64,000 bases of DNA from a phage, in the sequence record PZ583739.1; one strand, written 5' to 3'. Position 1 is the first letter of the stretch. Each line of letters opens with the position of its first letter. The notes beneath the pieces are model-generated. The model searched no databases, had not been told where the DNA came from, and was given only the letters and a program-made list of their open reading frames with translations. The position numbers were made by a program, and so were the translations under genes. This document shows, piece by piece, positions 1-19,516 of the stretch.

Positions 1-183
1 TTTAGTCATGAAGTGAACATAGATAAATCCTTGCTCAACACATTCCCGCCAGATTGGGTTATCCTTGACCGGATTAATATCAAACGAGTAATTATGATTC
101 ACATGACGAATAAACTGGTTAACATGACCGTAATCCATCGTGGTGACTGGACCACGGTCTGAAATAGTATGAACGACAAACAT
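1..183 (-). CDS. hypothetical protein, N-terminal part only (gene runs off the left edge)
   Basis: ATG at 183-181 overlaps the TGA stop of the upstream gene (ATGA junction); frame stays open to position 1 (MFVVHTISDRGPVTTMDYGHVNQF...). Confidence 0.35.
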   Translation of the reverse strand, partial: MFVVHTISDRGPVTTMDYGHVNQFIRHVNHNYSFDINPVKDNPIWRECVEQGFIYVHFMTK

Positions 184-1007
184 CAATTGCCCCCTTGTCC
201 GCCGGTCGGTTGATTGTACCAATATTCAATACCAGTACCCACGCGTGGGCCATATTGATATGGATATGCTGGATTATAACCAGGAGTCCACGGTTGTCCA
301 GGCTGCCAGCCCTGCTGCATTTGTTGCTGAAGACGGCGAGTTTCACGAAACAGCTCTTCCAGTTTACGGAGTTCATCTGGGGTGAATTCTGGTTTGACTG
401 GTTCATCTTTGTGTTTCAGTTTAAGCTGTCCGGCTACATCGTCCCAATTAAAAACTTTGGAAGCTGTTTTAGGAATAGCATCACGTTCGCCGCGGGCCAT
501 CCAATAAACCGGGACTTCAAGAATTTCACTCGCATGGTCGCAATGGTGTGCAAGGTCATCAATATAACAAATGACATTATATTTGTCTTTTGCCTTCTGA
601 AATAACTCCTCTTTAGAGGCTGTATGGCCGCACATCATCACTTCTTTAAATGCGCCAGGGAACAAAGCGTTCAGGTTGAATTGACGATTCAGACGGGCAT
701 CAATGGAATCACCCAGAGCCGTAACAGCCACAAAATCATATTGCTCTTTGAGGTTATTAATAACCCTTAACGCATCCGTGTAAGGAGACAAATAGCGAAT
801 AAAATCTGAACAGTTATATTTCTCAATCAACTGTGCTCCCAACTCTTCATCACAATTGAACAGTTTACCAGGGGTCACAAATTTTTCATCCTGAATCATT
901 TTAAGGATATGTTCCAGGGGTAAATTATATTTTTGAGCGAAATAAGGCAAGCCTGACTGCCATGACAAACATACGCCATCAATATCTGTTAAAATAACGG
1001 GTTTCAT
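183..1007 (-). CDS. HAD-superfamily hydrolase-like protein with P/G/Y/Q-rich C-terminal tail
   Basis: 274-aa ORF; N-terminal ILTDIDGV (HAD motif I), later YIDD acidic motif; low-complexity tail QGWQPGQPWTPGYNPAYPYQYG; overlaps next gene by 4 nt. Confidence 0.5.
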   Translation of the reverse strand: MKPVILTDIDGVCLSWQSGLPYFAQKYNLPLEHILKMIQDEKFVTPGKLFNCDEELGAQLIEKYNCSDFIRYLSPYTDALRVINNLKEQYDFVAVTALGDSIDARLNRQFNLNALFPGAFKEVMMCGHTASKEELFQKAKDKYNVICYIDDLAHHCDHASEILEVPVYWMARGERDAIPKTASKVFNWDDVAGQLKLKHKDEPVKPEFTPDELRKLEELFRETRRLQQQMQQGWQPGQPWTPGYNPAYPYQYGPRVGTGIEYWYNQPTGGQGGN

Positions 1008-1471
1008 AATGCATCTCTCAATTGGTTAAGTATGTCAATAAATTCTTGTTCAGTCAATATTGTATCATGAACAGTAAGGTGGCTCGCCATCGAATGCTTT
1101 AAAACTTTGCCCTTTGTAGCTTGTAATGCGTCGCGGAATCCTTTGTTTTGGAGCGCTGCTTCAAAATAAGCATTTGTATACAACTCTTTCCATGATGCAG
1201 AGTATCTTGAAAAGGGAATTCCAAGCCAGAAAAGCGTCCCACGGTCCGCAGCTCTTGCATAAGCTCTTCCACTTTGCTGGGCGGCCAATCCGGACATCCC
1301 AAATATACGTTTTTGTTGTTCATTATTTCTCACCTTGCACCCTTGTAGGAAGCATTCAAGACCCCCAAACTGGATACCCTCCATAACAAAAGGCCATTTA
1401 GCAAAGTTACTTAATGCACATGATGGCCACGGAAAATTACTTCTGATTTCTAACTCAGACATCTTTGACAC
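1004..1471 (-). CDS. NADAR (YbiA/DUF1768-like) domain protein
   Basis: 155 aa; LSNFAKWPF...ECFLQGCKV pattern resembles the FSNF / EHYFQAxKF signature of E. coli YbiA-type NADAR domains (recalled, not aligned). Confidence 0.5.
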   Translation of the reverse strand: MSKMSELEIRSNFPWPSCALSNFAKWPFVMEGIQFGGLECFLQGCKVRNNEQQKRIFGMSGLAAQQSGRAYARAADRGTLFWLGIPFSRYSASWKELYTNAYFEAALQNKGFRDALQATKGKVLKHSMASHLTVHDTILTEQEFIDILNQLRDAL

Positions 1472-1667
1472 TGATAATATCTACATCAGCCCAATGACCA
1501 TAACCAGGTAGACGGTCTTTAATAGATAATCCACCGTCAGATTTCAGCATTTTAATTGTTTTAGTATATGGTTCAATATTTCGGGCCCATGGGCTCACGT
1601 CTGTTACACGATAAGTAACTTCAACCATTTCTGTGCCCAAAATTTTCTGAATCAGTTTCTTAAACAT
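1455..1667 (-). CDS. hypothetical protein
   Basis: 70-aa ORF in co-directional packed array; start may be downstream of the track start. Confidence 0.4.
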   Translation of the reverse strand: MFKKLIQKILGTEMVEVTYRVTDVSPWARNIEPYTKTIKMLKSDGGLSIKDRLPGYGHWADVDIISVKDV

Positions 1668-1668
1668 A

Positions 1669-1863
1669 TTATCCTCGCTTTAAGCATTTGATTACAGACA
1701 ACTCACCACCCATGCGAACGTCTTCAGTTCCATCAACCCACAAGACTGCATATGCTTCTTTAATTCGGGTATTGCCTAATTTAAACGCAGGCAGGACCTT
1801 TGAAATCATTCCAGGAATACCCACACCTTTTAACTGAACTGTTTGTGATAAGAATAGTTGCAT
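1669..1863 (-). CDS. hypothetical protein
   Basis: 64-aa ORF, tightly abutting neighbours. Confidence 0.4.
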   Translation of the reverse strand: MQLFLSQTVQLKGVGIPGMISKVLPAFKLGNTRIKEAYAVLWVDGTEDVRMGGELSVIKCLKRG

Positions 1864-2150
1864 TAGAACCTCGTCAGGAAACCGCGTGATTTAACATTAC
1901 CGCCATTAATATCAGATGAATTAATTTCCCGCGCCGCAATTGGGTCAATATCAATGTCGCGTCTAAGCTTGGTGATTGCCAGAGTATCACGTCCATTAAC
2001 AGTCCTGAATTCAACTGGGCAAACTACATCAACATAGTTCTTAATGGAATCGCGTGTTGGTTCACACCCAGCAGGAACATTAGGGCCTTTTTTAGAGAAA
2101 ACAACTTCACAGAAATTTTTACGTGTATCAAAGTAAGTAGTCATAAACAT
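1863..2150 (-). CDS. hypothetical protein
   Basis: 95-aa ORF; GC hairpin GGGGC-tttc-GCCCC at 2165-2178 just upstream. Confidence 0.4.
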   Translation of the reverse strand: MFMTTYFDTRKNFCEVVFSKKGPNVPAGCEPTRDSIKNYVDVVCPVEFRTVNGRDTLAITKLRRDIDIDPIAAREINSSDINGGNVKSRGFLTRF

Positions 2151-2191
2151 AGTATTTTCCTCAAGGGGCTTTCGCCCCCCCCCATTTAAGA

Positions 2192-2557
2192 TTAGATATC
2201 AAATTCATTAAGAACTACATCAAAGATTGCTTCCAGGTGTTCAGGTTTTGCTTTGTTGCTCAGGATGTGACGAATCCAAGTTTTAACCAGAAGCTTGCGA
2301 TTAACACCATTCCAGCAAGGATGAGTCCCTAAATCACGTTCACGGAAATCATCATCTAAAGCAATTTTAAAAGTTGAACCAGTCATAGTGATTGAAAGAG
2401 TGATACCATTTTCAAATCGCATATAAACGTAGTTAGGAGTCATATACTGTTCAATTTCGCACACTGAACCATTTTTATGTTTCCATAAGCAAATAAATTC
2501 AGAAGAACCTGGGATGCAGTTAGAAACATATTTGCGTTCAAAGTTGATGTAGTTCAT
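2192..2557 (-). CDS. hypothetical protein
   Basis: 121-aa ORF preceded by conserved CTGGAGAATAAAATG initiation region. Confidence 0.5.
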   Translation of the reverse strand: MNYINFERKYVSNCIPGSSEFICLWKHKNGSVCEIEQYMTPNYVYMRFENGITLSITMTGSTFKIALDDDFRERDLGTHPCWNGVNRKLLVKTWIRHILSNKAKPEHLEAIFDVVLNEFDI

Positions 2558-2584
2558 TTTATTCTCCAGTTGTTTTCATTTGTT

Positions 2585-2624
2585 GGTACAGGTCTATAAT
2601 ATCATAACCTGTACCAAAGTAAAC
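2585..2624 (-). promoter_or_regulatory. early sigma70-type promoter with stem-loop (PeSL-like cassette)
   Basis: minus strand GTTTAC-17nt-TATTAT; inverted repeat GGTACAGGT (2585-2593) / ACCTGTACC (2607-2615) brackets the -10. Confidence 0.5.
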
Positions 2625-2628
2625 TGTT

Positions 2629-2997
2629 TTATGCGACTTTAATCCAATTATCTAAATTTAATTCACCCTTAGCTTTCATTTTTTCAATCAAATCATCAGC
2701 AGTAGTGCGACCATTTTGATACCATGTAACATCTTCAGAATAACCAGTTTCTTCATCTTCATAGGTCTTACAACGAATCTTACCAAGAATCAAAGTTTTC
2801 AGTTCGTAGGTATCACCAGTAAAAAAGTTTGTTACCATAATTTTCCAAGAGAAGTCATCAGAAGGACCTTCTGGAGTCATACAAGAAACGAATTCAAATT
2901 GTTCTTTATACAAGTGCCATTGCATTTCTTTAGTTTCAATGGCTTTGTAACCGTCGTGGTCTTTACCTTTGATGTATGAGTTAAGATTGATTTTCAT
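2629..2997 (-). CDS. hypothetical protein
   Basis: 122-aa ORF; conserved leader and CTGGAGAATAAAATG start context. Confidence 0.5.
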   Translation of the reverse strand: MKINLNSYIKGKDHDGYKAIETKEMQWHLYKEQFEFVSCMTPEGPSDDFSWKIMVTNFFTGDTYELKTLILGKIRCKTYEDEETGYSEDVTWYQNGRTTADDLIEKMKAKGELNLDNWIKVA

Positions 2998-3035
2998 TTT
3001 ATTCTCCAGTGTTTTATTGTGTAACTCAGTATGGA

Positions 3036-3068
3036 ATCATTATGCACTGGTCAAACCCTGTTGTAAAC
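3036..3068 (-). promoter_or_regulatory. early promoter with conserved leader
   Basis: minus strand GTTTAC (3063-3068 rc) -18nt- CATAAT then conserved leader GATTCCATACTGAGTTAC. Confidence 0.45.
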
Positions 3069-3080
3069 CCCTTTATGGAA

Positions 3081-3107
3081 AATAAAAAAGGGACTCCGAA
3101 GAGTCCC
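3081..3107 (-). terminator. rho-independent terminator, UUCG-loop hairpin
   Basis: GGGACTC-cgaa-GAGTCCC (3090-3107) preceded on plus strand by A-run, i.e. U-run after the hairpin on minus-strand RNA. Confidence 0.6.
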
Positions 3108-3112
3108 TGAAC

Positions 3113-3274
3113 TTATGCTTTCGGCTTACCAAAGCAAGCTGCATCGGCACGCAATACCGCACGAGCACGAGCCTGAAGTTTATCAGTTACCTGATTGATT
3201 CGCTGGTTGGACGCACGCTTGTAACCAGCGCGTTTGGAGGAGCCATCAACAACTTTAACTTCTTTCTTAGCCAT
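3113..3274 (-). CDS. small basic protein (53 aa), not in ORF track
   Basis: ATG 3274, TAA 3113; MAKKEVKVVDGSSKRAGYKRASNQ...; sits immediately before the terminator. Confidence 0.3.
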   Translation of the reverse strand: MAKKEVKVVDGSSKRAGYKRASNQRINQVTDKLQARARAVLRADAACFGKPKA

Positions 3275-3305
3275 ATTAAATTCTCTTTAAAATAGAATGC
3301 AGGAC

Positions 3306-3596
3306 TTATTGACATTGCCTGCGCAAGCCCTCAAGGGGGAACATAGGTTTTGTATATTTAACGACAGGATAACCATAAACCTCGTCATCATACCAACCAC
3401 GACTTAGACAGATAACCTTTTTCTGACGCGTGATAGTACAAAATACATTCAAGAGGTACACCACAAAATTATCGGGGTCTAAAACTATAATGATTCGCAA
3501 ACCATTAATCAGATAATTCGGTGGCTCCTCGGATGATATTAAAGACAATATACAAGCAGGTATCATATTATAGTGGAGGTACCTGCCAACATCCAC
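3306..3596 (-). CDS. hypothetical protein (start uncertain)
   Basis: 96-aa ORF using GTG start; a TATAAT-containing inverted repeat GCAGGTA/TACCTGC (3556-3586) lies inside its 5' end, so the real start may differ. Confidence 0.3.
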   Translation of the reverse strand: MDVGRYLHYNMIPACILSLISSEEPPNYLINGLRIIIVLDPDNFVVYLLNVFCTITRQKKVICLSRGWYDDEVYGYPVVKYTKPMFPLEGLRRQCQ

Positions 3597-3603
3597 CTAA
3601 AGC

Positions 3604-3858
3604 TTACTTCAGGGTTACGACAAAATGGCGAACAGCTTTACGGGCAGCAGATGCCAGTGGCTTAGCAAATTTCAGTTCATCTTTTGCTTCGAGCACTGCG
3701 CGAAGGTCGGTTTGAACCGGGTTAAGATGTTTGAAATACTGCAGAATTTCCAGTGCTTCGGCTTCAACATCAATAGATGCGCCGTAGTTTTCGTGACCGT
3801 TATTCCATGCAGTGCGTTGCAGTTCAAGAGCGTGTTGTAATTGTTTGTTTAAAGACAT
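3604..3858 (-). CDS. rIII: rIII lysis-inhibition accessory protein
   Basis: from internal ATG 3858 (SD GAGG): MSLNKQLQHALELQRTAWNNGHENYGASIDVEAEALEILQYFKHLNP... matches T4 rIII as remembered. Confidence 0.85.
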   Translation of the reverse strand: MSLNKQLQHALELQRTAWNNGHENYGASIDVEAEALEILQYFKHLNPVQTDLRAVLEAKDELKFAKPLASAARKAVRHFVVTLK

Positions 3859-4029
3859 TTTAGAAGCCTCAATATGAGGTGAATATTTGGTGGACACGTT
3901 CTTCTGAATTTCACTTCCTTTCGGCAAGTCTCTCAGTTGTAGTCCACCGTTTAGGATTAGCTAACCCCATACACCAGCAAAGCTCTGTATGACATCAACC
4001 AATCCATATTATTATTTATAACGCTAATT

Positions 4030-4353
4030 TTACTTATAAAGACAAGGAACAGCTTTATAATGACAGGTCACAAATTTCTGCTTAACTTCTTTAGCCTGCT
4101 TAAGTCCCAGAGCAACCAGAGGATGTGGAACGTTTGCAATCTTGCCAACCGGAAGAGGAGTCAAATCACCCACTTCACAGAAACCTTCAGGAACATCCGG
4201 ACCAATCGAAAATACTTCACACATCTCTGGGATTTCACCCTGATGGAGTTTTCCGATAACGATACCTGATGCCGTAGTTTCTTCATCACCAGCTTGCTTT
4301 GGCTCAGAAACCAAAATAATATATTCACCTACTGCTTTAATTGGTAATTCCAT
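4030..4353 (-). CDS. 31: gp31 co-chaperonin (GroES-like)
   Basis: ...[23 protein letters not shown]...[15 protein letters not shown]...[14 protein letters not shown] matches T4 gp31; start set at ATG 4353 (track start 4377 also possible). Confidence 0.85.
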
Positions 4354-4408
4354 ATTTAATCCATGTTGTTTGGTCATGTATTAATAATAACACGCACCGT
4401 TTGAAGCA

Positions 4409-4708
4409 TTAAAGGACAAGCAGAGTCTCGGTCTGTAGCCCATTCACGGAAATCAATTTATTGAAACAGAATGAACGCCATTCATTAAGCTTGGTATCAA
4501 ATACCCGGATATAGCTAACTGGTTCTTTATTGGCTTCTGGTCCAGGGGCCTGGATTTCTTTATACGGTAGCAGGTCCAGGTCGCGAGTACAAGTCATACG
4601 ACGGATGCTACCATCTGCTTTTTCAAACAGAACTTCGTGAAAACCAACAGACAAAATAGTCTTGACTTTTTCACGGAGACGAATTGTTTCTTGTTCAGTT
4701 AAAATCAT
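4409..4708 (-). CDS. hypothetical protein (31.1 position)
   Basis: 99-aa ORF between 31 and cd as in T4. Confidence 0.45.
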   Translation of the reverse strand: MILTEQETIRLREKVKTILSVGFHEVLFEKADGSIRRMTCTRDLDLLPYKEIQAPGPEANKEPVSYIRVFDTKLNEWRSFCFNKLISVNGLQTETLLVL

Positions 4709-4710
4709 AA

Positions 4711-4944
4711 TTATTCCAGAATAGTTTTGATAGTGGTTGCATTACGCTCTTTTAGAGCTCTTAATAGGCTATGGCAATTATCAAGAATAGGCACCGTTTT
4801 ATATTTCATTTCGGGGCGAACCCACTCGGATTTATAGTACGATTTCCAACGAGAGAAAAAGTATTTTTTATATTCTACTGAATAGGCTACCAGGTTTTCA
4901 CCTTTTGAGTTCAGACCTGAAAACTTAACTAGACGAAATTTCAT
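4711..4944 (-). CDS. hypothetical protein (31.2 position)
   Basis: 77-aa ORF; ATGA overlap with cd stop. Confidence 0.45.
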   Translation of the reverse strand: MKFRLVKFSGLNSKGENLVAYSVEYKKYFFSRWKSYYKSEWVRPEMKYKTVPILDNCHSLLRALKERNATTIKTILE

Positions 4945-5525
4945 TATTCACCACAAAATTCGTTAATGTTTTCCCAGTTCAATTTGTCTAGACTACGCTT
5001 AGGCACATTGAACACCTCAATTCCCGCGTTCTTCAGGATATCATCCCAACCAGGAATATTCTTATCATACGTTTCACAGTAAACCAATTTCTTGATTCCT
5101 GATTGAGAAATTGCCTTTGCACAATCAGGACAAGGAGAAAGCGTCACATACATAGTAGCGCCTTCAATTGACGAACCCATTCTGGCTGCGAACAGAATCG
5201 CATTAAGCTCAGCATGAATTTCGTTGTTCTTTGACCATGCAGAATGTTCTTCGCGATGAGCTTTCGCCAATACAAAACGGTCAACCTGACTGAATCTCAC
5301 GCATTCTGGCTTATGACCAGGGATGAGAACAGGTTTAGGTTTATTCAGTAACCAACCTTGCTCTTCCGCATGCTCGCAACAGTTAACCCCACCTGCAGGG
5401 GAACCATTATACCCTGTAGAAATAATGCGGCCATTCTTTTCAATAACAGCTCCCACTTTCCAGGAGCAACATTTGGATTCTTGAGATACAAGGTATGCGA
5501 TTTGCAGAACAGTAGTTGGTTTCAT
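4944..5525 (-). CDS. cd: dCMP deaminase
   Basis: 193 aa; zinc motifs CCEHAE / HAELNAI / SPCPDCAKAI; near-identical to T4 Cd as remembered. Confidence 0.9.
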   Translation of the reverse strand: MKPTTVLQIAYLVSQESKCCSWKVGAVIEKNGRIISTGYNGSPAGGVNCCEHAEEQGWLLNKPKPVLIPGHKPECVRFSQVDRFVLAKAHREEHSAWSKNNEIHAELNAILFAARMGSSIEGATMYVTLSPCPDCAKAISQSGIKKLVYCETYDKNIPGWDDILKNAGIEVFNVPKRSLDKLNWENINEFCGE

Positions 5526-5861
5526 TTACATCACCACGAGATAATTGGTTTTAATAGTTTCAACACGATATAATTCATGTCGCAATTTAGTAATGCTCTT
5601 AACATGTGTTGTAATTATACTATCACCGTCGCTGAAGCGTTTTTTCTTATCGCCAAAAATCACCCCAAACATTCGCTCACCAATTTCTACAGGAGCTTCT
5701 GTGATAACAACCGCATCATAATTACTTGGGTGAATACTTTTAAACAGAGCATCATTCACAAGCGTTACTTTGATAAATGCAGCTGTCTCCGGGTCCAACT
5801 TACGATGGTCACCCAAATCATTTTTAAGTGCTTCCTGAAAAATATCCATTAAATTCATCAT
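5526..5861 (-). CDS. hypothetical protein (cd.x region)
   Basis: 111-aa ORF. Confidence 0.45.
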   Translation of the reverse strand: MMNLMDIFQEALKNDLGDHRKLDPETAAFIKVTLVNDALFKSIHPSNYDAVVITEAPVEIGERMFGVIFGDKKKRFSDGDSIITTHVKSITKLRHELYRVETIKTNYLVVM

Positions 5862-6103
5862 TGAATATACACTCGCTGCGCTTCAACCAGACCGTCAGAA
5901 CCCAATTTCAGTTGGGTCAACTGGTCACCACCTTTTAGAGTAATTTTCGGATTAATGACAATCATAAAACTGCGTGCAGATTCCTGAATAACTTGCAAAG
6001 TCGCAGCAGGGAATCGCTGTGATACGCGGTTAATCATCTCTTGAGCAAATGCCTTCACTTTTTCGTGGAACTCTTCAACAGTAATTGGGGTTTCGCTAAG
6101 CAT
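5858..6103 (-). CDS. hypothetical protein
   Basis: 81-aa ORF, 4-nt overlaps both sides. Confidence 0.45.
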   Translation of the reverse strand: MLSETPITVEEFHEKVKAFAQEMINRVSQRFPAATLQVIQESARSFMIVINPKITLKGGDQLTQLKLGSDGLVEAQRVYIQ

Positions 6104-6645
6104 CAGATTGTCTCCTGTTTTACTTGTTTAACGATAGAAGCTTTTGTGATATCGCCTTTGATAATATAGCAATCTTCAACAGTACCACGGTTTAACAGAC
6201 GCTCTGCTTCGCCTTCCGCATATTCTTTTGACACATGACGAGAGTTAATCTCAATCTTGCCATTTTTAACCACAAGCAATTTCCAAACTGATGCAAGTTT
6301 TACTGGCACAGGTTCAACTTCTGGCTTAACACCAACTTCTGCCTGGATGAAATAATCAAATTCATCAGACAATGGACCAGCAGAAACAAACATTGCCCCA
6401 TGATGCCTGTTCTGTGTGCCAGATATTTTTGGCAAATCCACAAAATCATTTTCATCAATCAAACGAATCTCACAAACTTTTTTACCGCCGCTGATGTCAT
6501 CGGATAAAATCTTAACTTCAAACGGAGTCATACCGATGTATCCAGCAATTTGGTAATTGGCTGCCCAGCCTCCGGCAATAAACTGTTTTTTGGCATTTTC
6601 AGATACAAATTTGTAAAACTTACCTTCTTCAAAGAAATCGCTCAT
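6103..6645 (-). CDS. hypothetical protein
   Basis: 180-aa ORF with its own promoter cassette upstream. Confidence 0.5.
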   Translation of the reverse strand: MSDFFEEGKFYKFVSENAKKQFIAGGWAANYQIAGYIGMTPFEVKILSDDISGGKKVCEIRLIDENDFVDLPKISGTQNRHHGAMFVSAGPLSDEFDYFIQAEVGVKPEVEPVPVKLASVWKLLVVKNGKIEINSRHVSKEYAEGEAERLLNRGTVEDCYIIKGDITKASIVKQVKQETI

Positions 6646-6671
6646 TTTGTTTTCCTCATGTGTTGATGAAA

Positions 6672-6703
6672 TTCATTATACACCATCCATGGTGAAAGTA
6701 AAC
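6672..6703 (-). promoter_or_regulatory. early promoter
   Basis: minus strand GTTTAC (6698-6703 rc) - spacer - TATAAT (6675-6680 rc). Confidence 0.45.
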
Positions 6704-6705
6704 AC

Positions 6706-6984
6706 TTAAATTGCTTCGACAACTACCGTTTGTTTCTGGAAGTCCATTTTGCATGAAATAGCCAAAATATGGTTATCAATTTTAAATGGAACAATTGCAA
6801 ATGCTGCACCAGGCGTGAGTTGAACAGTGATTGCATCAACTGCATCCGGGAACATGATTTCCAGAATAGCAGACAAACGACCGTGCACTTTTAGTTCAGT
6901 CGACACGTCGACGCTTTCGTATAGATAATCAGATACAATCTGACTAAAAAGTACTTTAACAATTTCAGAATATGTAGGAAACAT
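6706..6984 (-). CDS. hypothetical protein
   Basis: 92-aa ORF. Confidence 0.4.
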   Translation of the reverse strand: MFPTYSEIVKVLFSQIVSDYLYESVDVSTELKVHGRLSAILEIMFPDAVDAITVQLTPGAAFAIVPFKIDNHILAISCKMDFQKQTVVVEAI

Positions 6985-7055
6985 TTCTTTTCTCGCTTAG
7001 TTATTGGGGTATCCAAAGGACCTAGACCCCATTATATCATAAAATTTTTAAAGCG

Positions 7056-7271
7056 TTAATGGACGGTATGCACCTTGACATTAACGATAAATCGGTCAAT
7101 GACTTCAGTCAGCGGAACGAATTCAACATAATATTCGCCCTTGTACCGTTCGTTGATGTCATTACGCAGTGCAGCCAGGTTATTGATAAGAGCAGGAGAC
7201 ATATTCTGACCTACCAGTTTCTGAAGCTCTTTATAAGCTTCTTCTTCAACTTCATGGTGTTTGTTATACAT
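7056..7271 (-). CDS. hypothetical protein
   Basis: start moved to ATG 7271 (MYNKHHEVEEE...); track ORF over-extended into the neighbour. Confidence 0.4.
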   Translation of the reverse strand: MYNKHHEVEEEAYKELQKLVGQNMSPALINNLAALRNDINERYKGEYYVEFVPLTEVIDRFIVNVKVHTVH

Positions 7272-7461
7272 AATGTTCTTCCAAGAAGGCCAAGAGTTCT
7301 GGAGCGGATTTAAAGATACCGCCATCGACCTTGTCTTCATCTTTATAGTCCATTACATCCAGGCCAATACGTCCATCAGTTAAAGGCCATACACTGAAAA
7401 AGTATTCGTAACGTTTTTCAATCTCTTCGATTGTACGAAAAATCTTTTCGATATTATTCAT
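7264..7461 (-). CDS. hypothetical protein
   Basis: 65-aa ORF. Confidence 0.4.
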   Translation of the reverse strand: MNNIEKIFRTIEEIEKRYEYFFSVWPLTDGRIGLDVMDYKDEDKVDGGIFKSAPELLAFLEEHYV

Positions 7462-7653
7462 AGGTTTTCCATGGTAATTGGATTCGAGTTTGTTTTACAG
7501 TAAGCTCGACCTCGGGATTCAATTTTTTCAATCGGAGACATTCTTCCCAGGCGTCTGATTCGTTACTGAACGTATAGAAACGGCCGTCAATAACTACAAT
7601 CTTTTTCTGATTGGTAATATTAACAATGGCCCAGGTATCGCAATAATAGCCCA

Positions 7654-7654
<1 letters not shown>
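7454..7654 (-). CDS. hypothetical protein
   Basis: 66-aa ORF just upstream of pseT. Confidence 0.4.
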
Positions 7655-8876
<1,222 letters not shown>

Positions 8877-8904
8877 AATAATTTCCCCAATTTTATAATC
8901 CGTA

Positions 8905-8939
8905 GGAGCATTATACTCTGCTCCCATGAGTTTGTACAC
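8905..8939 (-). promoter_or_regulatory. early promoter with stem-loop (PeSL-like)
   Basis: minus strand GTGTACA ... TATAAT; inverted repeat GGAGCA (8905-8910) / TGCTCC (8919-8924) around the -10. Confidence 0.5.
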
Positions 8940-9042
8940 TACTTTCCAAAAAGACCTTGAACACATAAAGTGGCCGCAATTCCAAAACAAAAACAGAATG
9001 CACCAAATCTAACAATATCCCAACCAAGGCTACAGTTCTCTA

Positions 9043-9333
9043 TCATTTACAACGTTCCTCTTTTAGTTCAGAACGATAATAACATAACATACCTTTTTGG
9101 TCATGTACATATCTTTTTACATCATTCATCCAAATCCGGAATTCTTGCGATGCTTCAAAAGGCATACCAACCCAGGCTTGACCCTCAATTACCTTAACTT
9201 CCCATTGCTGTTTGTAATCAGCCAATGCAACAGGCCAATTGGGATGAACTTGGATTGTGGGCTCCACAACGGGCTTCTGGGCACATGAAACGAGTCCAAT
9301 AGCCAAACATACTGCCATGATAGATTTCATCAT
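9043..9333 (-). CDS. o-spanin-like outer-membrane lipoprotein (pseT.2 position)
   Basis: signal peptide with lipobox GLVSC; ATGA overlap with the upstream i-spanin-like gene. Confidence 0.6.
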   Translation of the reverse strand: MMKSIMAVCLAIGLVSCAQKPVVEPTIQVHPNWPVALADYKQQWEVKVIEGQAWVGMPFEASQEFRIWMNDVKRYVHDQKGMLCYYRSELKEERCK

Positions 9334-9683
9334 TTGGTGAGCTCCTGGAAGTCCCGGGCGAACTTATCAAAAGACTGATTAATCTGTTTTTCAACTAATT
9401 TAGGCTTCGCTACCACAACCTTAGTACGTTTTGCATCTGCACGGAGTTTATCATTTTCCTTCTGCAGAAGTTCAACATATTCCTGCCGCTCCTGGTCAAG
9501 GAGATTAATTTGATTAATTTGGTCTTTTACTGATTGCAGATTTTTCGCGTTATCTTCTGCAACTTTGGTGACCGCAGCCACCTCTGTCTTGAGATTATCT
9601 ACTTTTGCTTTTAGATAGAAACCACTACCAGCAGTTACTACCAGGGCGAGCATAAGCCCTGCAGTGAGATTACTTATTTGCAT
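9330..9683 (-). CDS. i-spanin-like protein (pseT.3 position)
   Basis: N-terminal TM helix (LMLALVVTAGSGFYL) followed by coiled-coil-like sequence; 117 aa. Confidence 0.6.
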   Translation of the reverse strand: MQISNLTAGLMLALVVTAGSGFYLKAKVDNLKTEVAAVTKVAEDNAKNLQSVKDQINQINLLDQERQEYVELLQKENDKLRADAKRTKVVVAKPKLVEKQINQSFDKFARDFQELTK

Positions 9684-10177
9684 AACTTGATGATTACCTC
9701 AACAATATCATCCTGGGATAAACCATTCAGGAGGATGTGATTTGTACTGTCAGACGCTGAAATGCGGAACTGATTACCAACTTCATCCGCCATATCATCC
9801 TGGGTTAACACTGGGTGTTTAATTCCCAGGCGGTGTTGAAGTGTCAGGGGTTCAACCACAACATAACAAACACATCCATTGATATGTACATTAGGTTGGG
9901 TCTGGTTAATGAACACTTCTGCATCATATTTAACCAAATGGTTCTTTAAGAATTCAACCATTTCAGGAACAGATTCATGCAGTGCTTCTTTCCGCTCTTC
10001 TGATTTTTTATCGCGATATTCTTTTTGTTTCGCCTTCAACTTTTTGTTAGAGGCGAGTTTTTTCCGCAGGTCAGTCATAAGACCAATTTTCTTGGTCCCT
10101 TTATAGACATAAATTCCGTCATGACGGTCACCATATTCATTGACAATCATTTCATTTGAAATCAGTTGCATATCCAT
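9674..10177 (-). CDS. alc: probable Alc-like protein (assigned by position and 167-aa length)
   Basis: start at ATG 10177 with SD GAGGAAAATATT; lies between rnlA and the spanins as in T4. Confidence 0.4.
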   Translation of the reverse strand: MDMQLISNEMIVNEYGDRHDGIYVYKGTKKIGLMTDLRKKLASNKKLKAKQKEYRDKKSEERKEALHESVPEMVEFLKNHLVKYDAEVFINQTQPNVHINGCVCYVVVEPLTLQHRLGIKHPVLTQDDMADEVGNQFRISASDSTNHILLNGLSQDDIVEVIIKLCK

Positions 10178-10190
10178 AATATTTTCCTCA

Positions 10191-10424
10191 TTAGTAGCGG
10201 TTATAACCCCGGGGACCAAAAGAGTTGGCACCCAGGCGCTCATCTTTCTTTTTGGCTCTTGCTCTAAACCCGGAATCACCTGTTTGAGCTTTCAGTTCTT
10301 TTAACAATTTGGCCTTTAGGTCAGTAATGAAACCAATCCGGCGGTCTCCCTTATAGACATAGATTCCATCATTTCTGTCACCATATGCCTTTGTAACTCT
10401 GTCATTTGTAATTAAGTTTAACAT
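10191..10424 (-). CDS. small protein paralogous to the N-terminal module of the downstream alc-like gene
   Basis: 77 aa from ATG 10424; shares YGDRxDGIYVYKGxxxIGxxTDLxxKL with the 9674-10177 product. Confidence 0.4.
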   Translation of the reverse strand: MLNLITNDRVTKAYGDRNDGIYVYKGDRRIGFITDLKAKLLKELKAQTGDSGFRARAKKKDERLGANSFGPRGYNRY

Positions 10425-10454
10425 GTTTTGGTCCTCATCAGTAGTTGATGGAAC

Positions 10455-10488
10455 CATTATGTATAGAAAGAAGGGGCTTGTACACCCC
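10455..10488 (-). promoter_or_regulatory. composite terminator hairpin / early promoter
   Basis: hairpin GGGG-cttgtaca-CCCC (10473-10488) follows rnlA; its loop carries the GTGTACAA -35-like motif, CATAAT at 10456-10461 rc. Confidence 0.4.
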
Positions 10489-10494
10489 TTTTTA

Positions 10495-11631
10495 TTATTC
10501 AGGAAGGATTACTTCCGCCTGGTAGTCTAACGGAATGTAAAGTTTATGATTTTTAAGGAAAACTTTATTGATTTGAGCAATCGTTTGTTCAGTTTCCTGT
10601 GGGCGTTGATAGGTGTTCATTAATACGGAGAACAATCCCGGATATGGTTTACATAACTCTTGACCTTTAATCGCAAACTCGCGACGGTCTTTTCCTGCTA
10701 ACTGTTTTTGTGCATCAAGCAACAGTCCAAGAGTGTTGGACAGATAATCCAGATGTGTTGCAGTAAAGGCAGTAACTTTTTCACGAGCATAAGTATCGCC
10801 AGTAAACATGGCAATAACATCATCCGCGCCGCCAGCAACAACAACTTCAAACAGTCGCTCATTATTATTAATGGAGTCTTTAGTATGATGCAGAGCACAA
10901 TACCATTCTGTTTTCATCTTGAACTTCTGACCGTTAGCCATCTCATAGACGAAGCCTTCAATCTCTTTCATACCGCGAACATTCTCAATGGTTGCCGGGT
11001 CATATGCTTCAACCAGGAAAGGACGAAGCGCTGCATCTTTGAACAGCTCCTGATAAGGAATATATTCACCAGTTTCATTATGACGAACGTTCAGTAAAAT
11101 CAGGTCACGTTCCTGGTAAGGCAAAACAATGCGGTTGGTCGGTGCAACATATTCCATGTTGCATGTATAACCAGCTTCAGTGATTTCAGTCACACGAGCC
11201 CTGAATGCACTGCGATGTTCTTGTTTAAACACCTGCAAGGATTCAGCTGCTTGGGAGCTTTTGATTGACCCTTTGGATTTAAAGGCGATATTGGTCTGGT
11301 CCATATAAGTGGAAACCAAACTACCATCAGCTTTTGCAGTAACCAGGACAACTTCATCAAGGTTAAGGTCCATGGTCATTGGATTCTCACCCAGATTAAA
11401 GAATTTTTCCATAGGACGAGCAGCAATGCGAACTGGACCATTGTCATCCATTTCAAACATAATGCCACGGCACTCCAGCGCATCATCAAGGAGCCAATCA
11501 CTATAGGAAGCATAGTTATAGCTAAAGATGCGGAACTTAGTTTCAAATGGAGAAACAAAATCCGTATAGAAAAACTTACCTTTATCAGATTCGGCGCAAA
11601 GCTTCATTAAGTTATCATATAATTCAATCAT
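10495..11631 (-). CDS. rnlA: RNA ligase 1
   Basis: 378 aa; ...FFYTDFVSPF...FRIFSYNYASYSDWLLDDALECRGIMFEMDDNGPVRIAARPMEKFFNL... matches T4 gp63 as remembered. Confidence 0.9.
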   Translation of the reverse strand: MIELYDNLMKLCAESDKGKFFYTDFVSPFETKFRIFSYNYASYSDWLLDDALECRGIMFEMDDNGPVRIAARPMEKFFNLGENPMTMDLNLDEVVLVTAKADGSLVSTYMDQTNIAFKSKGSIKSSQAAESLQVFKQEHRSAFRARVTEITEAGYTCNMEYVAPTNRIVLPYQERDLILLNVRHNETGEYIPYQELFKDAALRPFLVEAYDPATIENVRGMKEIEGFVYEMANGQKFKMKTEWYCALHHTKDSINNNERLFEVVVAGGADDVIAMFTGDTYAREKVTAFTATHLDYLSNTLGLLLDAQKQLAGKDRREFAIKGQELCKPYPGLFSVLMNTYQRPQETEQTIAQINKVFLKNHKLYIPLDYQAEVILPE

Positions 11632-12038
11632 TTCTTCACCTTATGTTGGTAATTCCACGGGGGATTAAAAAGCTTGATGAACATCGGCTCTTCCAGTGAC
11701 ATAGTTTCGACTGACATTGTGCCAAGTTCATTGGTCATTGACAGATTGAAACACTGTCGAGCATAGAATACCACCTTTTTACCTTCTTGTAAAGCTTCGT
11801 GTATCATCCGGGATTTGTTTGAATCGCTCGTCTGGTCGATTCGGTTAATTGCAGTCCGGTAATAGTTGATACGCTTCTTAAGGTTGTTCGTCTTACCAAT
11901 ATACACTAGTTCATCATCAACTGAAATAGCATAGATAACATTTTTCTTGTTCGCGAGAGTAAGGGTAGGGATTGTACCATTGACTAACTCCAACTCCGCG
12001 TATTTTATAAAACTATATTCGTCAGCGATTTGTTTCAT
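11628..12038 (-). CDS. denA: endonuclease II (GIY-YIG family)
   Basis: 136 aa from ATG 12038: MKQIADEYSFIKYAELEL...VIYAISVDDELVYIGKTNNLKKRINYYR; matches T4 DenA as remembered. Confidence 0.85.
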   Translation of the reverse strand: MKQIADEYSFIKYAELELVNGTIPTLTLANKKNVIYAISVDDELVYIGKTNNLKKRINYYRTAINRIDQTSDSNKSRMIHEALQEGKKVVFYARQCFNLSMTNELGTMSVETMSLEEPMFIKLFNPPWNYQHKVKK

Positions 12039-12042
12039 AGAC

Positions 12043-12059
12043 AAAAAGGGCCGGAGCCC
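12043..12059 (-). terminator. hairpin terminator after nrdB
   Basis: GGGC-cgga-GCCC with U-run on the minus-strand transcript. Confidence 0.45.
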
Positions 12060-12064
12060 TTTCC

Positions 12065-13243
12065 TTATAGATATTTACGGAAACCAGCAAGAACGTTCTC
12101 ATCGACGTCATTGTCAATCTGGGCTACCAGGTAAGCAGACAACTCAACTTCTTGTGGTGCTGATTGCACATTATCAGAGTTCAGATATTCGCGAATCCAT
12201 GGAATCGGGTGCTTAGTAGATTCTAACACGATTTCACACGGGAGACCGCATTGCTTCATACGAGAAACTGTAAGGTAATCGATGAACCGGTTAAGAATCT
12301 CGACGCTCAGACCAGGGAGTCCACCATCTTTAAACAGATGCACGGCCCATTCTTTTTCCTGGCGATTAACTTCCATGAAAATGGAAGCGGCTTCTGCTTC
12401 ACATTCGTGCGCGATTTTAACCCATTCGTCACCGTCAACACCAGTCTGCAGCTGACGAAGAATATATTGGGTCCCCTTAAGGTGGAGCTGTTCATCACGG
12501 GCGATGAACTTCATTATCTTCGCATTGCCTTCCATGATTTCCATGTTCTTATGGAAGTTGAAAGTACATGCGAAAGATACATAAAAACGAATAGCTTCCA
12601 GGGCGTTAATAACATGCAGGCAGAGATAAAGAGACTTCATCAATGCTCGTTTGGCGATAGCTTCTTGTTTGATAGCTCGTTCCAAACGTTCGTCCGCTTC
12701 GGGAGTTTCTTTGGCCAGTTCAACAAAAGCAATCTGATTTTGCCATTGACGAGTTTTATTCAGAACATCATCATAGTAATGACCAATGGATTCTGCGCGC
12801 TTCATGATTGCATCATCTAACAGGATTTCGTCGAATACCTTCGCCGGGTCCGTATAGAGATTTCGCATGATGTGCGTATAAGAACGAGAGTGAATTGTCT
12901 CGCTGAATGTCCAGGTCTGAATCCATGTATCAAGACTTGGGTCAGAAACTAATGCGGCTAATGCTGCAGCTGGAGCGCGACCCTGAATACTATCCAGAAG
13001 TGATTGGTATTTCAGGTTGTTGGTAAAAAGTTTTTGTTGATGGTCAGGAAGCTTATTAAATTGAGCTCCGTCCATCATCAGGTTTACTTCCTCTGGACGC
13101 CAGAAGAATGATAATTGCTTTTCTGTTAATTCTTCGAAAACTTTATGGCGCTGGATATCATAACGGGCGATGCCCAATCCTGAGCCAAAAAACATAGGCT
13201 CGGCTAAAACATCCACTGGAGTGGTATTAAAAACTGTACTCAT
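12065..13243 (-). CDS. nrdB: ribonucleotide reductase small subunit (uninterrupted)
   Basis: 392-aa continuous ORF with ferritin-like R2 sequence; adjacent to nrdA. Confidence 0.9.
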   Translation of the reverse strand: MSTVFNTTPVDVLAEPMFFGSGLGIARYDIQRHKVFEELTEKQLSFFWRPEEVNLMMDGAQFNKLPDHQQKLFTNNLKYQSLLDSIQGRAPAAALAALVSDPSLDTWIQTWTFSETIHSRSYTHIMRNLYTDPAKVFDEILLDDAIMKRAESIGHYYDDVLNKTRQWQNQIAFVELAKETPEADERLERAIKQEAIAKRALMKSLYLCLHVINALEAIRFYVSFACTFNFHKNMEIMEGNAKIMKFIARDEQLHLKGTQYILRQLQTGVDGDEWVKIAHECEAEAASIFMEVNRQEKEWAVHLFKDGGLPGLSVEILNRFIDYLTVSRMKQCGLPCEIVLESTKHPIPWIREYLNSDNVQSAPQEVELSAYLVAQIDNDVDENVLAGFRKYL

Positions 13244-13281
13244 TTTATTTCCTCAATAGCTCATCCATGAGCATAATTATA

Positions 13282-15537: not shown

Positions 15538-15570
15538 GTTTTCCTCTATAGTTCAAAAGGGTTGGGAACC

Positions 15571-15816
15571 TTAAATTGTCTCTGGTAGTTCCGAAGTCAT
15601 TTCATCATTATATTCTTCTTCTGACTGGACAGTGATGTCAAAATATGACTGGACATCACCGGCTGAATCATGACAGTAGACACGTTCATGTCGTTTGGCC
15701 AGAAATTTGATTCCGTCAATAGTGATATAAGAATTTGGCGCAGGTAAATCCTGTTCGGTAAATTGTGGCATTTCAAAAATGACTTCGCCTGACTGGCGTT
15801 TAAATCGTAAATTCAT
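15571..15816 (-). CDS. hypothetical protein
   Basis: 81-aa acidic ORF between nrdA and td. Confidence 0.45.
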   Translation of the reverse strand: MNLRFKRQSGEVIFEMPQFTEQDLPAPNSYITIDGIKFLAKRHERVYCHDSAGDVQSYFDITVQSEEEYNDEMTSELPETI

Positions 15817-15875
15817 AATTTCCTCTCATTAAATTTTAAATAATTATATCACAGTGCCCTGAAGCGGAATCGTAT

Positions 15876-16175
15876 TTATGTACCCAAATCCTCGAGCGAA
15901 AAGGTGTCTTTGAAAAGTTTGTTAACGACCAGAGCGATAACGTCGCCATGACATGACTTCGGTTTGCATGTGCAGGCTAATCGCATTCCACGAAGGGTTT
16001 CAAGGTGTTCTCTTTTGATTTCACCCGATTTAATCTTTGCTATGAAATATTCTTTAAAGTTCTTTATGTTTTCTTCTCGGGTACCATCTTTATATGGGTT
16101 TCCCCACATGGTACCCCGTTGAATATTCACATCAAAGTCGGATTGATATTTGTTAACAACCCGACAGGCTTTCAT
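15876..16175 (-). CDS. hypothetical protein with conserved Cys/His pattern
   Basis: 99 aa; WGNPY...LACTCKPKSCHGDV; family not assigned. Confidence 0.45.
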   Translation of the reverse strand: MKACRVVNKYQSDFDVNIQRGTMWGNPYKDGTREENIKNFKEYFIAKIKSGEIKREHLETLRGMRLACTCKPKSCHGDVIALVVNKLFKDTFSLEDLGT

Positions 16176-16236
16176 AATAGGAAGTTAAGCCCGACCATTA
16201 CGGCCAGAAATAAAATACCGACAATTTGAATTTTCA

Positions 16237-16433
16237 TTAGACCTCGACAATAAACCAGATAGACCGATTGAAATCATCATATTCATACGATTTAATTACA
16301 CGCATAACATAAAGTTCTTTACCCTGGACAAAAATCGTTGTTTTCTCTTTAGGCAGTTCATCGAGACTTATGTTCATTTTTTCAAACAGCACCTCATTGG
16401 CGCCGTATCTATTGTTTACTATACGAATATTCA

Positions 16434-16434
<1 letters not shown>
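16237..16434 (-). CDS. hypothetical protein
   Basis: 65-aa ORF, stop overlaps td start. Confidence 0.4.
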
Positions 16435-18210
<1,776 letters not shown>

Positions 18211-18220
18211 TATATTTTCC

Positions 18221-18460
18221 TCACGCTTTCTTAGCGACTTTCCAGTCAGCTTTAAATTGGTCAACATCAGAGTGGTGAATCCAGAAACCAGATGAGCTAC
18301 CATCTTCATAAAGAGGACAACCATCACACTCATCTTTCCAACCCATCGCACATAAAGTTTCTTCAGCTTTTTCCAGGGCTTCTGGATTGTTACCCTGGAT
18401 TGTAAAGTACCATTTGCCTTTAACTTCTGAATCTTTGATGCTCTCACGTTGTAATTTCAT
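18221..18460 (-). CDS. hypothetical protein
   Basis: 79-aa ORF; its TGA stop lies inside the SD of the downstream gene. Confidence 0.45.
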   Translation of the reverse strand: MKLQRESIKDSEVKGKWYFTIQGNNPEALEKAEETLCAMGWKDECDGCPLYEDGSSSGFWIHHSDVDQFKADWKVAKKA

Positions 18461-18498
18461 TTTATTCTCCAGTGTTTTAGTTGTTAACTCAGTATGGG

Positions 18499-18531: not shown

Positions 18532-18537
18532 TACTTT

Positions 18538-19514: not shown

Positions 19515-19516
19515 TG

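Follow-up and report, generated by a model that had tools for sequence, protein, structure and literature searches.

The window analysed here, a stretch of 64,000 nucleotides from the phage record PZ583739.1, begins with a series of overlapping genes on the minus strand. Gene 30.2 (183..1007, minus) encodes a predicted C1-capped HAD phosphatase of 274 aa, and gene 30.3, also called adfN (1004..1462, minus), lies immediately upstream and encodes 152 aa when counted from the ATG at 1462. The two genes share the four nucleotides ATGA at 1004..1007 (minus), which combine the stop codon of 30.3 with the start codon of 30.2, and a Shine-Dalgarno-like GAGAG is found within 30.3, about 7 nt before the start of 30.2. 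An identical 4-nt overlap is present in T4 (128307-128310). An earlier sequence-only reading of this DNA had correctly located both ORFs and their overlap; the strand, which it left unstated, is the minus strand. The mechanical ORF of 30.3 reaches a GTG at 1471 (1004..1471, 155 aa), but translation most likely begins with the ATG at 1462, since the homologues and the T4 annotation agree on 152 aa. Directly upstream of 30.3 lies the orthologue of gene 30.4 (1455..1667, minus; 70 aa), which was recognized by phrog_2042 (E = 1.9e-34) and by the T4 annotation. Its stop codon overlaps the start of 30.3 by the 8 nt ATGTCTGA (1455..1462, minus), T4 being arranged alike, and 30.4 and 30.3 are probably translationally coupled. 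On the other side, gene 30.1 (1..183, minus) starts with the ATG at 183..181, which has 1 nt in common with the stop codon of 30.2, and continues beyond the window, in keeping with the T4 order 30.3-30.2-30.1-30.

The gene order and the overlaps in the window match those of T4, and the DNA is 93-97% identical to that of T-even phages of the SP18/VR25/TH41 type. Judged by these similarities, the phage is a Gaprivervirus-like T-even phage, and the two genes are assigned as orthologues of T4 30.3 and 30.2. Both are genuine conserved genes and not chance ORFs, as indicated by their numerous homologues (116 for 30.2, and 1386 representatives recovered by the 30.3 profile). No Rfam family matched the window, and a scan for promoters and terminators found nothing dividing 30.3 from 30.2 except consensus matches at chance level. 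It should be noted that in the T4 run from 30 to 30.6 nearly all adjacent gene pairs overlap by 1-8 nt. A start/stop overlap within this T-even early-gene run should thus not be taken as evidence for a functional pair.

The product of 30.3 matched PF08010 (Phage_30_3) with E = 8.1e-63 and 210.8 bits (cutoff 36) over profile positions 2-138 of 138. The sequence-only reading had described a 155-aa product with NADAR-like motifs and named PF08719 as the profile to search with; this profile did not match window gp30.3 even at E ≤ 10, and the length is likely to be 152 aa, but the assignment to the NADAR superfamily holds through PF08010 and the predicted fold. A search of NCBIfam returned no match for either window protein. 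The two Pfam families are bridged by 20 of 145 PF08010-family representatives, which also matched PF08719 (best E = 1.2e-6). In the AF2 model of gp30.3 (pLDDT 82.6, pTM 0.80), the only Foldseek matches in the PDB above a probability of 0.9 were E. coli YbiA (2b3w), a Geobacter NADAR (8bat) and a Phytophthora NADAR (8bau). YbiA, the founding NADAR/YbiA protein, was the best structural match (E = 4e-5, TM 0.57-0.62), and a gp30.3 profile search of PDB sequences also found it, although this weak match (E = 0.015) is marginal and serves as a pointer only. On the basis of the fold matches, the bridging between PF08010 and PF08719, and the literature, window gp30.3 is a member of the NADAR superfamily and belongs to the gp30.3/AdfN clade.

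It was previously shown that T4 gp30.3 is AdfN, that this DNA ADP-ribosylglycohydrolase is both required and sufficient to counter DarTG1, that deletion of adfN in T4 or T2 causes a 4-log loss on DarTG1 hosts, that purified AdfN removes ADP-ribose from DNA, and that RB69 is fully rescued by ectopic AdfN (PMC11257639 / PMC11825919, PMC11125620). The reversal of DarT-type guanine ADP-ribosylation, which the sequence-only reading had brought up for NADAR enzymes in general, is already published for the T4 orthologue. The E36A and K43A mutants of AdfN are inactive (PMC11257639, PMC11125620), and the RB69 version is truncated 15 residues early and has lost its function (PMC11257639 / PMC11825919). 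Window gp30.3 and T4 gp30.3 align over 152/152 residues at 84% identity, with 24 substitutions and without gaps through the last residue, so that the C-terminus of the window protein is intact. It occupies the same position as T4 AdfN (Johannesman, Carlson & LeRoux, Nat Commun 2025; PMC11825919), with the same overlaps, and has kept E36, K43 and H123 (T4 numbering). In our family alignment A2, no variation was seen at E36 and H123 and hardly any at K43; the roles of the catalytic Glu and Lys, and of the last-strand His typical of the phage proteins, are those described in PMC11257639 and PMC11125620. Given the gapless identity, the intact catalytic residues and the intact C-terminus, we infer that window gp30.3 is a DNA ADP-ribosylglycohydrolase like its T4 orthologue. 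As a stand-alone enzyme of the NADAR fold, it would cut the N-glycosidic bond that joins ADP-ribose to guanine in DarT1-modified DNA. Replicable phage DNA would be restored in this way, and the abortive-infection defence of DarTG1 would be defeated. The function of adfN is already known from T4, and the window adds one more intact allele, known from sequence, from a Gaprivervirus-like phage.

Among bacterial proteins, the closest relatives of the AdfN clade are reportedly NADARs of the DarG1/BC4488 type, which serve DarTG1 as antitoxins (Schuller et al., Mol Cell 2023; PMC11543638) and with which AdfN has the fold and guanine de-ADP-ribosylation in common. Unlike these enzymes, window gp30.3 lacks an N-terminal extension, carries His instead of Asp in the last strand, and is an orphan with no adjoining DarT. 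Identity to YbiA is only 18%, and enzymes of the YbiA type have Glu in place of H123; they have been linked to N-glycosidase activity on riboflavin intermediates (PMC11125620).

We found no paper on gp30.2 in a literature search; it is one of about 100 T4 genes without an assigned function and represents the remaining lead at this locus. The sequence-only reading had called its product a HAD-type hydrolase because of a DIDGV motif, and the structure model and the conservation bear this out. In alignment A1, which comprises 34 diverse gp30.2 homologues, D8, D10 and G11 of motif I (DIDGV, residues 8-12), K132 (motif III) and D150-D151 (motif IV) are invariant, and T96 (motif II) is nearly so. 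The catalytic core comprises residues 1-200 (408..1007, minus; pLDDT >90), and AF2 yielded a confident HAD model in which cap helices at about residues 16-86 form a C1 cap. Helical C1 caps between motifs I and II of HAD enzymes go with small-molecule substrates, whereas the phosphatase domain of polynucleotide kinase (PNK) is capless. We conclude from the model that gp30.2 is a predicted phosphatase of the HAD superfamily with a Rossmannoid core and a cap insertion. It would act as a Mg2+-dependent phosphomonoesterase through a phospho-aspartyl intermediate, and the invariance of the catalytic residues argues for a working enzyme.

A direct Pfam match, which the sequence-only reading had envisaged for the HAD protein, was not obtained: none of the Pfam HAD families matched gp30.2 even at E ≤ 10, and the NT5C profile (PF06941) did not match it directly either. 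The top Foldseek matches of gp30.2, however, were cytosolic and mitochondrial deoxyribonucleotidases (cdN and mdN) at about 16-20% identity, and phmmer aligned DIDGVxxxW..SGL of gp30.2 with MDGVLADF..SGL of cdN (2jao), a marginal match (E = 0.3-0.5) that is again only a pointer. Marine homologues at about 30% identity, which the gp30.2 HMM recovers with E = 1e-24 to 1e-32, matched full-length NT5C with 37.4 and 34.3 bits (Pfam gathering cutoff 24.8 bits). Through this transitive link, gp30.2 can be placed as a putative divergent member of the NT5C 5'(3')-deoxyribonucleotidase family. With cdN, mdN and PF06941 it shares the HAD core, the C1 cap and the pattern DxDGV, aromatic residue, SGL after motif I; it differs from cdN and mdN by about 75 additional residues, which form a further helix and a disordered tail. 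Since gp30.2 appears to be a divergent NT5C family member, the most likely substrate is a small nucleotide-like molecule, from which it would remove phosphate. Together with the complete catalytic set, the placement in the NT5C lineage gives a concrete hypothesis for gp30.2, namely that of a nucleotide monophosphatase.

The helix that follows the core, TPDELRKLEELFRETRRLQQQMQQ (residues 210-233; 309..380, minus), was modelled by AF2 with a pLDDT of 92-94. It is followed by a Q/G/P/Y/W-rich tail (residues 234-274; 186..308, minus), which is predicted to be disordered (pLDDT 46-67). The unusual composition that the sequence-only reading had pointed out is real: the last 49 residues contain 20% Q, 20% G, 14% P, 12% Y and 6% W, compared with about 4% or less of each in the core. 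Within the tail, the motif GTGIEYWYNQPT (residues 257-268, window 204-239) recurs in about 15-18 tailed homologues; further homologues have unrelated P/W/Y/N-rich tails or no tail. Tail-less short HADs adjoin NADARs in L004-L009 and in Acinetobacter-phage-like loci, whereas L011-L032 have tailed HADs and no NADAR. As judged from these sequences, the tail is a fast-evolving modular appendage. Its GTGIEY...QPT motif was absent from all other ORFs of the window, and therefore a shared docking motif cannot be deduced.

How closely the two genes are linked was assessed from their distribution across genomes. A NADAR of the 30.3 type lies within 4 kb of about 30 of the 79 viral 30.2 loci, with none nearby at 48/79; conversely, a 30.2-type HAD lies within 4 kb of 19 of the 29 NADAR loci, with none nearby at 10/29. 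Two genomes have 30.2 and 30.3 separated by tens of kb. In T4-like phages with both genes, the NADAR gene is always upstream and on the same strand, and this arrangement is kept down to about 40% identity. The L102 lineage shows the reverse order, with a divergent HAD upstream of the NADAR. At bacterial and archaeal NADAR loci, a HAD neighbour was found in only two of 80 cases. In phages without 30.3, small genes resembling 30.4 or 30.5 directly abut 30.2. As observed in these genomes, 30.2 is part of the conserved backbone of T4-like phages and is much commoner than adfN. The latter behaves like an accessory gene, which some phages have and others lack within a conserved 30.5-30.4-[30.3]-30.2 backbone. 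We also considered other partners. No Macro or ARH gene substitutes for 30.3 upstream of 30.2, where the slot holds only small ORFs of the 30.4/30.5 type. Gene 30.4 was discarded as a co-distributed partner of the NADAR, both being present at 10 loci, 30.4 alone at 10 and the NADAR alone at 20.

The two families also occur in a single polypeptide. P0191 (330 aa) consists of a PF08010-type NADAR followed by an NT5C domain (61 bits), in the same order as genes 30.3-30.2, and an ORF resembling it (NADAR-NT5C) was found in L161, a Prevotellaceae MAG. Such domain fusions usually point to a functional link. The NT5C part of P0191 is only remotely similar to gp30.2: in hhalign, the gp30.2 family and the HAD half of P0191 matched with a probability of 41% and solely from motif I to motif II, so that we regard this domain as belonging to the same family, and not as a gp30.2 orthologue. 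A gp30.2 HMM detected no gp30.2-like fused domain in the 145 NADAR-family representatives. The gene island around P0191, which is bacterial and of an ADP-ribose/RNA-repair type, contains an ADP-ribosylglycohydrolase (ARH), a second NADAR, RtcB and two other phosphatase-type genes, and LMWPc is among its members. P0205 is a weaker case of a NADAR-HAD fusion, and P0215 contains a different HAD subtype.

The requirement for both genes can be compared directly in published HIDEN-SEQ transposon data for T4 on control and DarTG1 hosts, a screen that covers one DarTG1 system in one host. Insertions in 30.3 were lost on DarTG1 hosts (log2FC -7.25, adjusted p 0), and insertions in 30.4 were mildly depleted (log2FC -1.79, adjusted p 0.014). 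Insertions in 30.2 were unaffected (log2FC -0.12, p 0.61, 71 sites) and were likewise neutral in LB and M9. As 30.2 is dispensable for counter-defence against DarTG1 in T4, the pair is mostly ordinary. We consider it very likely that we are dealing with the 30.3-30.2 segment of the T-even early-gene cluster, comprising adfN and an independent, predicted nucleotidase-like phosphatase. The adjacency and overlap of the two genes would then be explained by the tight packing of small, co-transcribed early genes and not by an obligate two-enzyme pathway.

The coupled two-step counter-defence module proposed in the sequence-only reading does not fit these data well. According to this idea, AdfN frees ADP-ribose or processes ADP-ribosylated guanine nucleotides, gp30.2 dephosphorylates the product, and both steps are needed. 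Modified dGMP, AMP, ribose-5-phosphate and phospho-ADP-ribose species come to mind as substrates of gp30.2 in such a scheme. The fusions in P0191 and the Prevotellaceae MAG, the P0191 island with its ARH, second NADAR, RtcB and phosphatase-type genes, the NT5C lineage of gp30.2, and the conserved order and strand in T4-like phages all speak for it. However, disruption of 30.2 costs T4 nothing on DarTG1 hosts, AdfN is active in vitro by itself, and supplying it ectopically is enough to rescue RB69, though this phage has its own 30.2. The co-occurrence of the two genes is moreover patchy in both directions, HAD neighbours are rare at cellular NADAR loci, no other ADP-ribose enzyme fills the slot when 30.3 is missing, and the start/stop overlaps are generic across 30 to 30.6. 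The idea is weakly supported, and we regard it as quite improbable. A non-catalytic role, in which gp30.2 stabilizes or localizes AdfN by protein contact, for example through its tail, would agree with a published proposal. AdfN does not rescue uninfected cells from DarT1 toxicity and rescues non-T-even phages only partly (PMC11825919, PMC11125620), and the authors therefore invoked another factor, probably provided by T-even phages, for full AdfN activity (PMC11825919). The adjacency of 30.3 and 30.2, their probable co-translation and the short conserved motif in the disordered tail are in line with this role. The neutrality of 30.2 insertions on DarTG1 hosts makes it extremely unlikely, as do the invariant catalytic residues, which argue for a working enzyme, and the tail, whose presence does not follow NADAR adjacency.

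A third possibility is that gp30.2 is a nucleic-acid end phosphatase, similar to the 3'-phosphatase domain of T4 polynucleotide kinase, and serves DNA or RNA repair beside the ligase gene 30. This could explain a weak match of gp30.2 to the polynucleotide kinase family phrog_415 (E = 1.3e-3), the position of 30.2 two genes away from the DNA ligase gene, and the presence of RtcB near the P0191 fusion. The modelled helical C1 cap has no counterpart in the PNK phosphatase domain, though, the sequence and Pfam links lead to NT5C and not to PNK, and T4 already encodes PseT, which renders this function very improbable. The independent nucleotidase-like phosphatase remains our preferred reading of gp30.2. 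Beyond it, we see an unlikely, though more far-reaching, scenario in which gp30.2 is an NT5C-type nucleotidase that partners gp30.3-type NADARs outside the pathway screened with DarTG1, or is the T-even factor that fully activates AdfN. One such pathway could be the removal or recycling of ADP-ribosylated guanine mononucleotides or phospho-ADP-ribose derived from other guanine-directed ADP-ribosyltransferases. If gp30.2 and the NADARs did share a pathway of this kind, the rare NADAR-NT5C fusions would be its fused form.

All genes in positions 1-4000 of the window lie on the minus strand. In its first 3 kb the window shares 93-97% identity with SP18/VR20/VR25/TH41-type T-even phages (SP18 typifies the genus Gaprivervirus of the subfamily Tevenvirinae), and the gene order 30.6-30.5-30.4-30.3-30.2-30.1-30 (DNA ligase), alt.1, alt is common to the window and the annotated T4 genome. 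The sequence-only reading had described an overlapping gene pair at this locus, encoding a NADAR-like protein and a HAD hydrolase with a Q/G/P/Y-rich tail, and every element of that description was present. The 155-aa ORF (1004..1471, minus strand, GTG start) is the orthologue of T4 30.3, now adfN (84% identical over 152/152 residues, gapless). An ATG at 1462, nine bases inside this ORF, gives 152 aa, the length of the gp30.3 homologues and of the T4 annotation. The 274-aa ORF (183..1007, minus strand; N-terminus MKPVILTDIDGV) is the orthologue of T4 30.2, with 67% identity overall; the cores are nearly the same and the tails diverge. The stop of 30.3 and the ATG of 30.2 share the ATGA at 1004-1007, a 4-nt overlap immediately preceded on the 5' side by a GAGAG Shine-Dalgarno-like element. 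A sequence scan further revealed a strong terminator-like hairpin (AGGGACTCTTCGGAGTCCCT, then a T run; 3089..3108, minus strand) 3' of a 53-aa ORF (3113..3274, minus strand), directly followed by a sigma-70-like promoter match (10/12; 3039..3067, minus strand). The transcription unit carrying 30.8 through 30.2 probably begins at this pair of signals. An Rfam scan of both strands of the whole window (1..64000) gave no family at the gathering score.

An HMM search with gp30.3 against PF08719, the Pfam NADAR family, yielded no match, even at E ≤ 10; the protein matches PF08010 (Phage_30_3) with E = 8e-63. The AlphaFold model (pLDDT 82.6) matched only NADAR structures in the PDB, namely YbiA (2b3w, E = 4e-5), a Geobacter NADAR (8bat) and a Phytophthora NADAR (8bau). 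When the family profile was compared with 1.84 billion proteins, 1386 representatives were obtained; the best 145 all carry PF08010, and 20 of these carry PF08719 as well. The structural matches and these 20 proteins tie the gp30.3 family to NADAR, as had been proposed from the motifs. The accompanying guess, reversal of guanine ADP-ribosylation by DarT, was also right, and the literature already describes this function for the T4 orthologue. Resistance of T-even phages to DarTG1 was mapped to gene 30.3, renamed adfN; T4 or T2 with the gene deleted plates about four logs lower on DarTG1 hosts; RB69, with a frameshift 15 residues before the end of its own copy, is fully rescued by ectopic AdfN; the E36A and K43A mutants are inactive; and purified AdfN removes ADP-ribose from DNA (Johannesman, Carlson & LeRoux, PMC11825919). 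An independent study found the same in vitro activity (PMC11125620). ADP-ribosyl-guanosine in RNA is a further substrate of the T4 NADAR. Since gp30.3 of the window retains E36, K43 and H123 and has a full C-terminus, we infer from its sequence a functional AdfN.

Among the database copies of gp30.3, many (P0004-P0006, P0013-P0020, P0022) are truncated to 86-126 aa or annotated as fused to neighbouring families (PF11097, PF06919, PF06019). Frameshifts or disruption of adfN, as described for RB69, appear to be frequent in natural T-even phages. A 74-aa ORF inside adfN in another frame (1099..1323, minus strand) is the counterpart of T4 30.3', annotated there as 'internal translation, in a different reading frame'. 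This frame is open (53-75 aa) in close Tequatrovirus/Gaprivervirus-like relatives and not in NADAR genes that are 45% identical or less; because only close relatives keep it open, descent and selection are inseparable as causes of its conservation.

For gp30.2, the HMM check against HAD families found no support, with no match in Pfam or NCBIfam; the protein matches phrog_420 (E = 6.5e-79), where function is unassigned, and a literature search found no paper on it. Its 116 homologues are all encoded by T4-like phages or on metagenome contigs that carry no label. Alignment of 34 diverse members showed no variation at D8, D10, G11, K132, D150 or D151 and almost none at T96; by sequence, D8/D10/G11, T96, K132 and D150/D151 make up the four HAD motifs. 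AlphaFold models residues 1-200 with confidence (pLDDT >90), and helices inserted after strand 1 form a C1 cap. Motifs and capped model thus confirm the 274-aa product as a HAD hydrolase. The leading Foldseek hits included the 5'(3')-deoxyribonucleotidases of mouse and human and a deoxyribonucleotidase-like protein of a staphylococcus, and the deoxyribonucleotidase cdN (2jao) was the sole PDB HAD touched by phmmer or the family profile, with DIDGVxxxW..SGL opposite MDGVLADF..SGL. Marine T4-like homologues (~30% identity), which match the gp30.2 HMM with E = 1e-24 to 1e-32, exceed the Pfam gathering threshold of NT5C (PF06941) over the whole profile (37.4 and 34.3 bits). On these three grounds, we place gp30.2 in the NT5C lineage as a divergent member, an assignment new to this analysis, and most likely a nucleotide-type phosphomonoesterase.

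A confidently predicted helix after the core (residues 210-233 in the AlphaFold model) is followed by a disordered stretch. The last 49 residues contain 20% Q, 20% G, 14% P, 12% Y and 6% W, compared with about 4% or less of each in the core. We compared the C-terminal extension (186..380, minus strand) with homologues P0023-P0138. At least 95 residues follow motif IV in 56 of the 107 homologues scored, and the remainder end soon after the core. The tails are of several unrelated types, all P/W/Y/N-rich; that of the window and T4, ending GTGIEY-x3-QPT, recurs in about 15-18 homologues of other genera and was not found elsewhere in the window. Other examples are RPESYRNVKPxDLRAYYG, PDYxLLNKVxANDS and WWNNxRITC. 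Tail presence does not follow that of an adjoining NADAR. The tail, whose modular nature is described here as a new feature, looks like a fast-evolving appendage, putatively for interaction, and its types suggest rapidly changing binding partners.

The sequence-only reading had suggested that the two products could form a two-step counter-defence or nucleotide-salvage module. AdfN does not rescue uninfected cells from DarT1 toxicity and rescues non-T-even phages only partially, unmodified T4-GT7 is still resistant, and the authors concluded that T-even phages probably supply another factor stabilising or localising NADAR (PMC11825919). By position, gp30.2 is an obvious candidate; the T4 transposon data speak against it. 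These HIDEN-SEQ data (bioRxiv 10.1101/2025.11.20.689424, supplementary file 7) are the most direct evidence on the question. In one table, insertions in 30.3 drop with a log2FC of -7.25 (adj p 0), and those in 30.2 (71 sites) show -0.12 (p 0.61). We take this table to be Data S6 (control versus DarTG1), given the order of the sheets (part 16 contains the beginning of Data S8) and the main text, according to which 30.3 insertions are lost on DarTG1. Gene 30.2 is also non-essential on K-12 (72/72 sites hit) and neutral in LB versus M9 (log2FC -0.10). Among the genes examined in the DarTG1 table, only 30.3 and 30.4 have adj p <0.05 on DarTG1 hosts, the latter being mildly depleted (log2FC -1.79, adj p 0.014). 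Gene 30.4 (1455..1667, minus strand) lies 5' of adfN and overlaps its start by 8 nt (ATGTCTGA). Its depletion could mean that it helps AdfN; since 30.4 and NADAR are distributed independently across loci (both in 10, 30.4 alone in 10, NADAR alone in 20), the simpler and likely reading is that 30.3 is affected through polarity or translational coupling.

The 30.3/30.2 overlap is uninformative on pairing, as in T4 all six junctions (30/30.1, 30.1/30.2, 30.2/30.3, 30.3/30.4, 30.4/30.5, 30.5/30.6) overlap by 1-8 nt. Co-occurrence is patchy. Among 79 viral loci with a 30.2 homologue, a NADAR gene lies within 4 kb in about 30 (15 abutting directly, the others at about 100 nt to 1.7 kb) and none does in 48; conversely, 10 of 29 viral loci with a gp30.3-type NADAR lack a 30.2-type HAD within 4 kb. 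In bacteria and archaea, 2 of 80 such NADAR loci have a HAD neighbour. In two T4-like genomes the NADAR lies tens of kb from the 30.2 homologue (loci L097 and L031 on contig IMGVR_UViG_2974754850; L104 and L022 on IMGVR_UViG_2706796257), indicating that it was gained or relocated independently of the 30.x cluster. In phages without 30.3, small 30.4/30.5-like genes border directly on 30.2, and neither a Macro nor an ARH gene was found in the 30.3 slot. This identifies adfN as an accessory element, inserted into or deleted from a conserved 30.x backbone, a further new contribution of this analysis. With neutral 30.2 insertions, generic overlaps and patchy co-occurrence, coupled counter-defence is unsupported for DarTG1.

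The coupling survives only as a low-probability lead, based on rare fusion proteins. Two of the best 145 NADAR-family representatives have a fused NT5C domain: P0191 (NADAR at residues 27-162, NT5C at 218-312 with 61 bits and a canonical VDMDNV motif I) and the marginal P0205, with a degenerate motif I; in P0215, NADAR is fused to another HAD subtype. The domain order of the NADAR-NT5C fusions is the 30.3-30.2 gene order, and in T4-like phages with both genes NADAR is always 5' of 30.2 on the same strand. A Prevotellaceae MAG encodes a fusion nearly identical to P0191. The P0191 gene (6001-6993 of locus L109, Logan ERR9710099 contig, 1-8851) neighbours an ADP-ribosylglycohydrolase, a second NADAR, RtcB and two phosphatase-type genes. 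The island looks like an ADP-ribose/RNA-repair gene cluster. Its gene content comprises DUF1810, the ADP-ribosylglycohydrolase, a 344-aa PF08719 NADAR, a PF08010 fragment, a metallopeptidase-like gene, RtcB, a PTP-NADK-like gene and an LMW phosphotyrosine phosphatase.

Two further loci were also recorded. On a 166-kb viral contig (L102), a divergent 30.2-like HAD (2709-3308; family HMM E = 2e-20, without a Pfam match) lies about 0.7 kb upstream of a NADAR gene (3980-4456), the reverse of the T4 order. At L059, a 549-aa ORF (2022-3671) 5' of a distant 30.2 homologue has ends that may resemble thymidylate synthase or dCMP hydroxymethylase, around a large internal insertion that is perhaps a homing endonuclease or intein.
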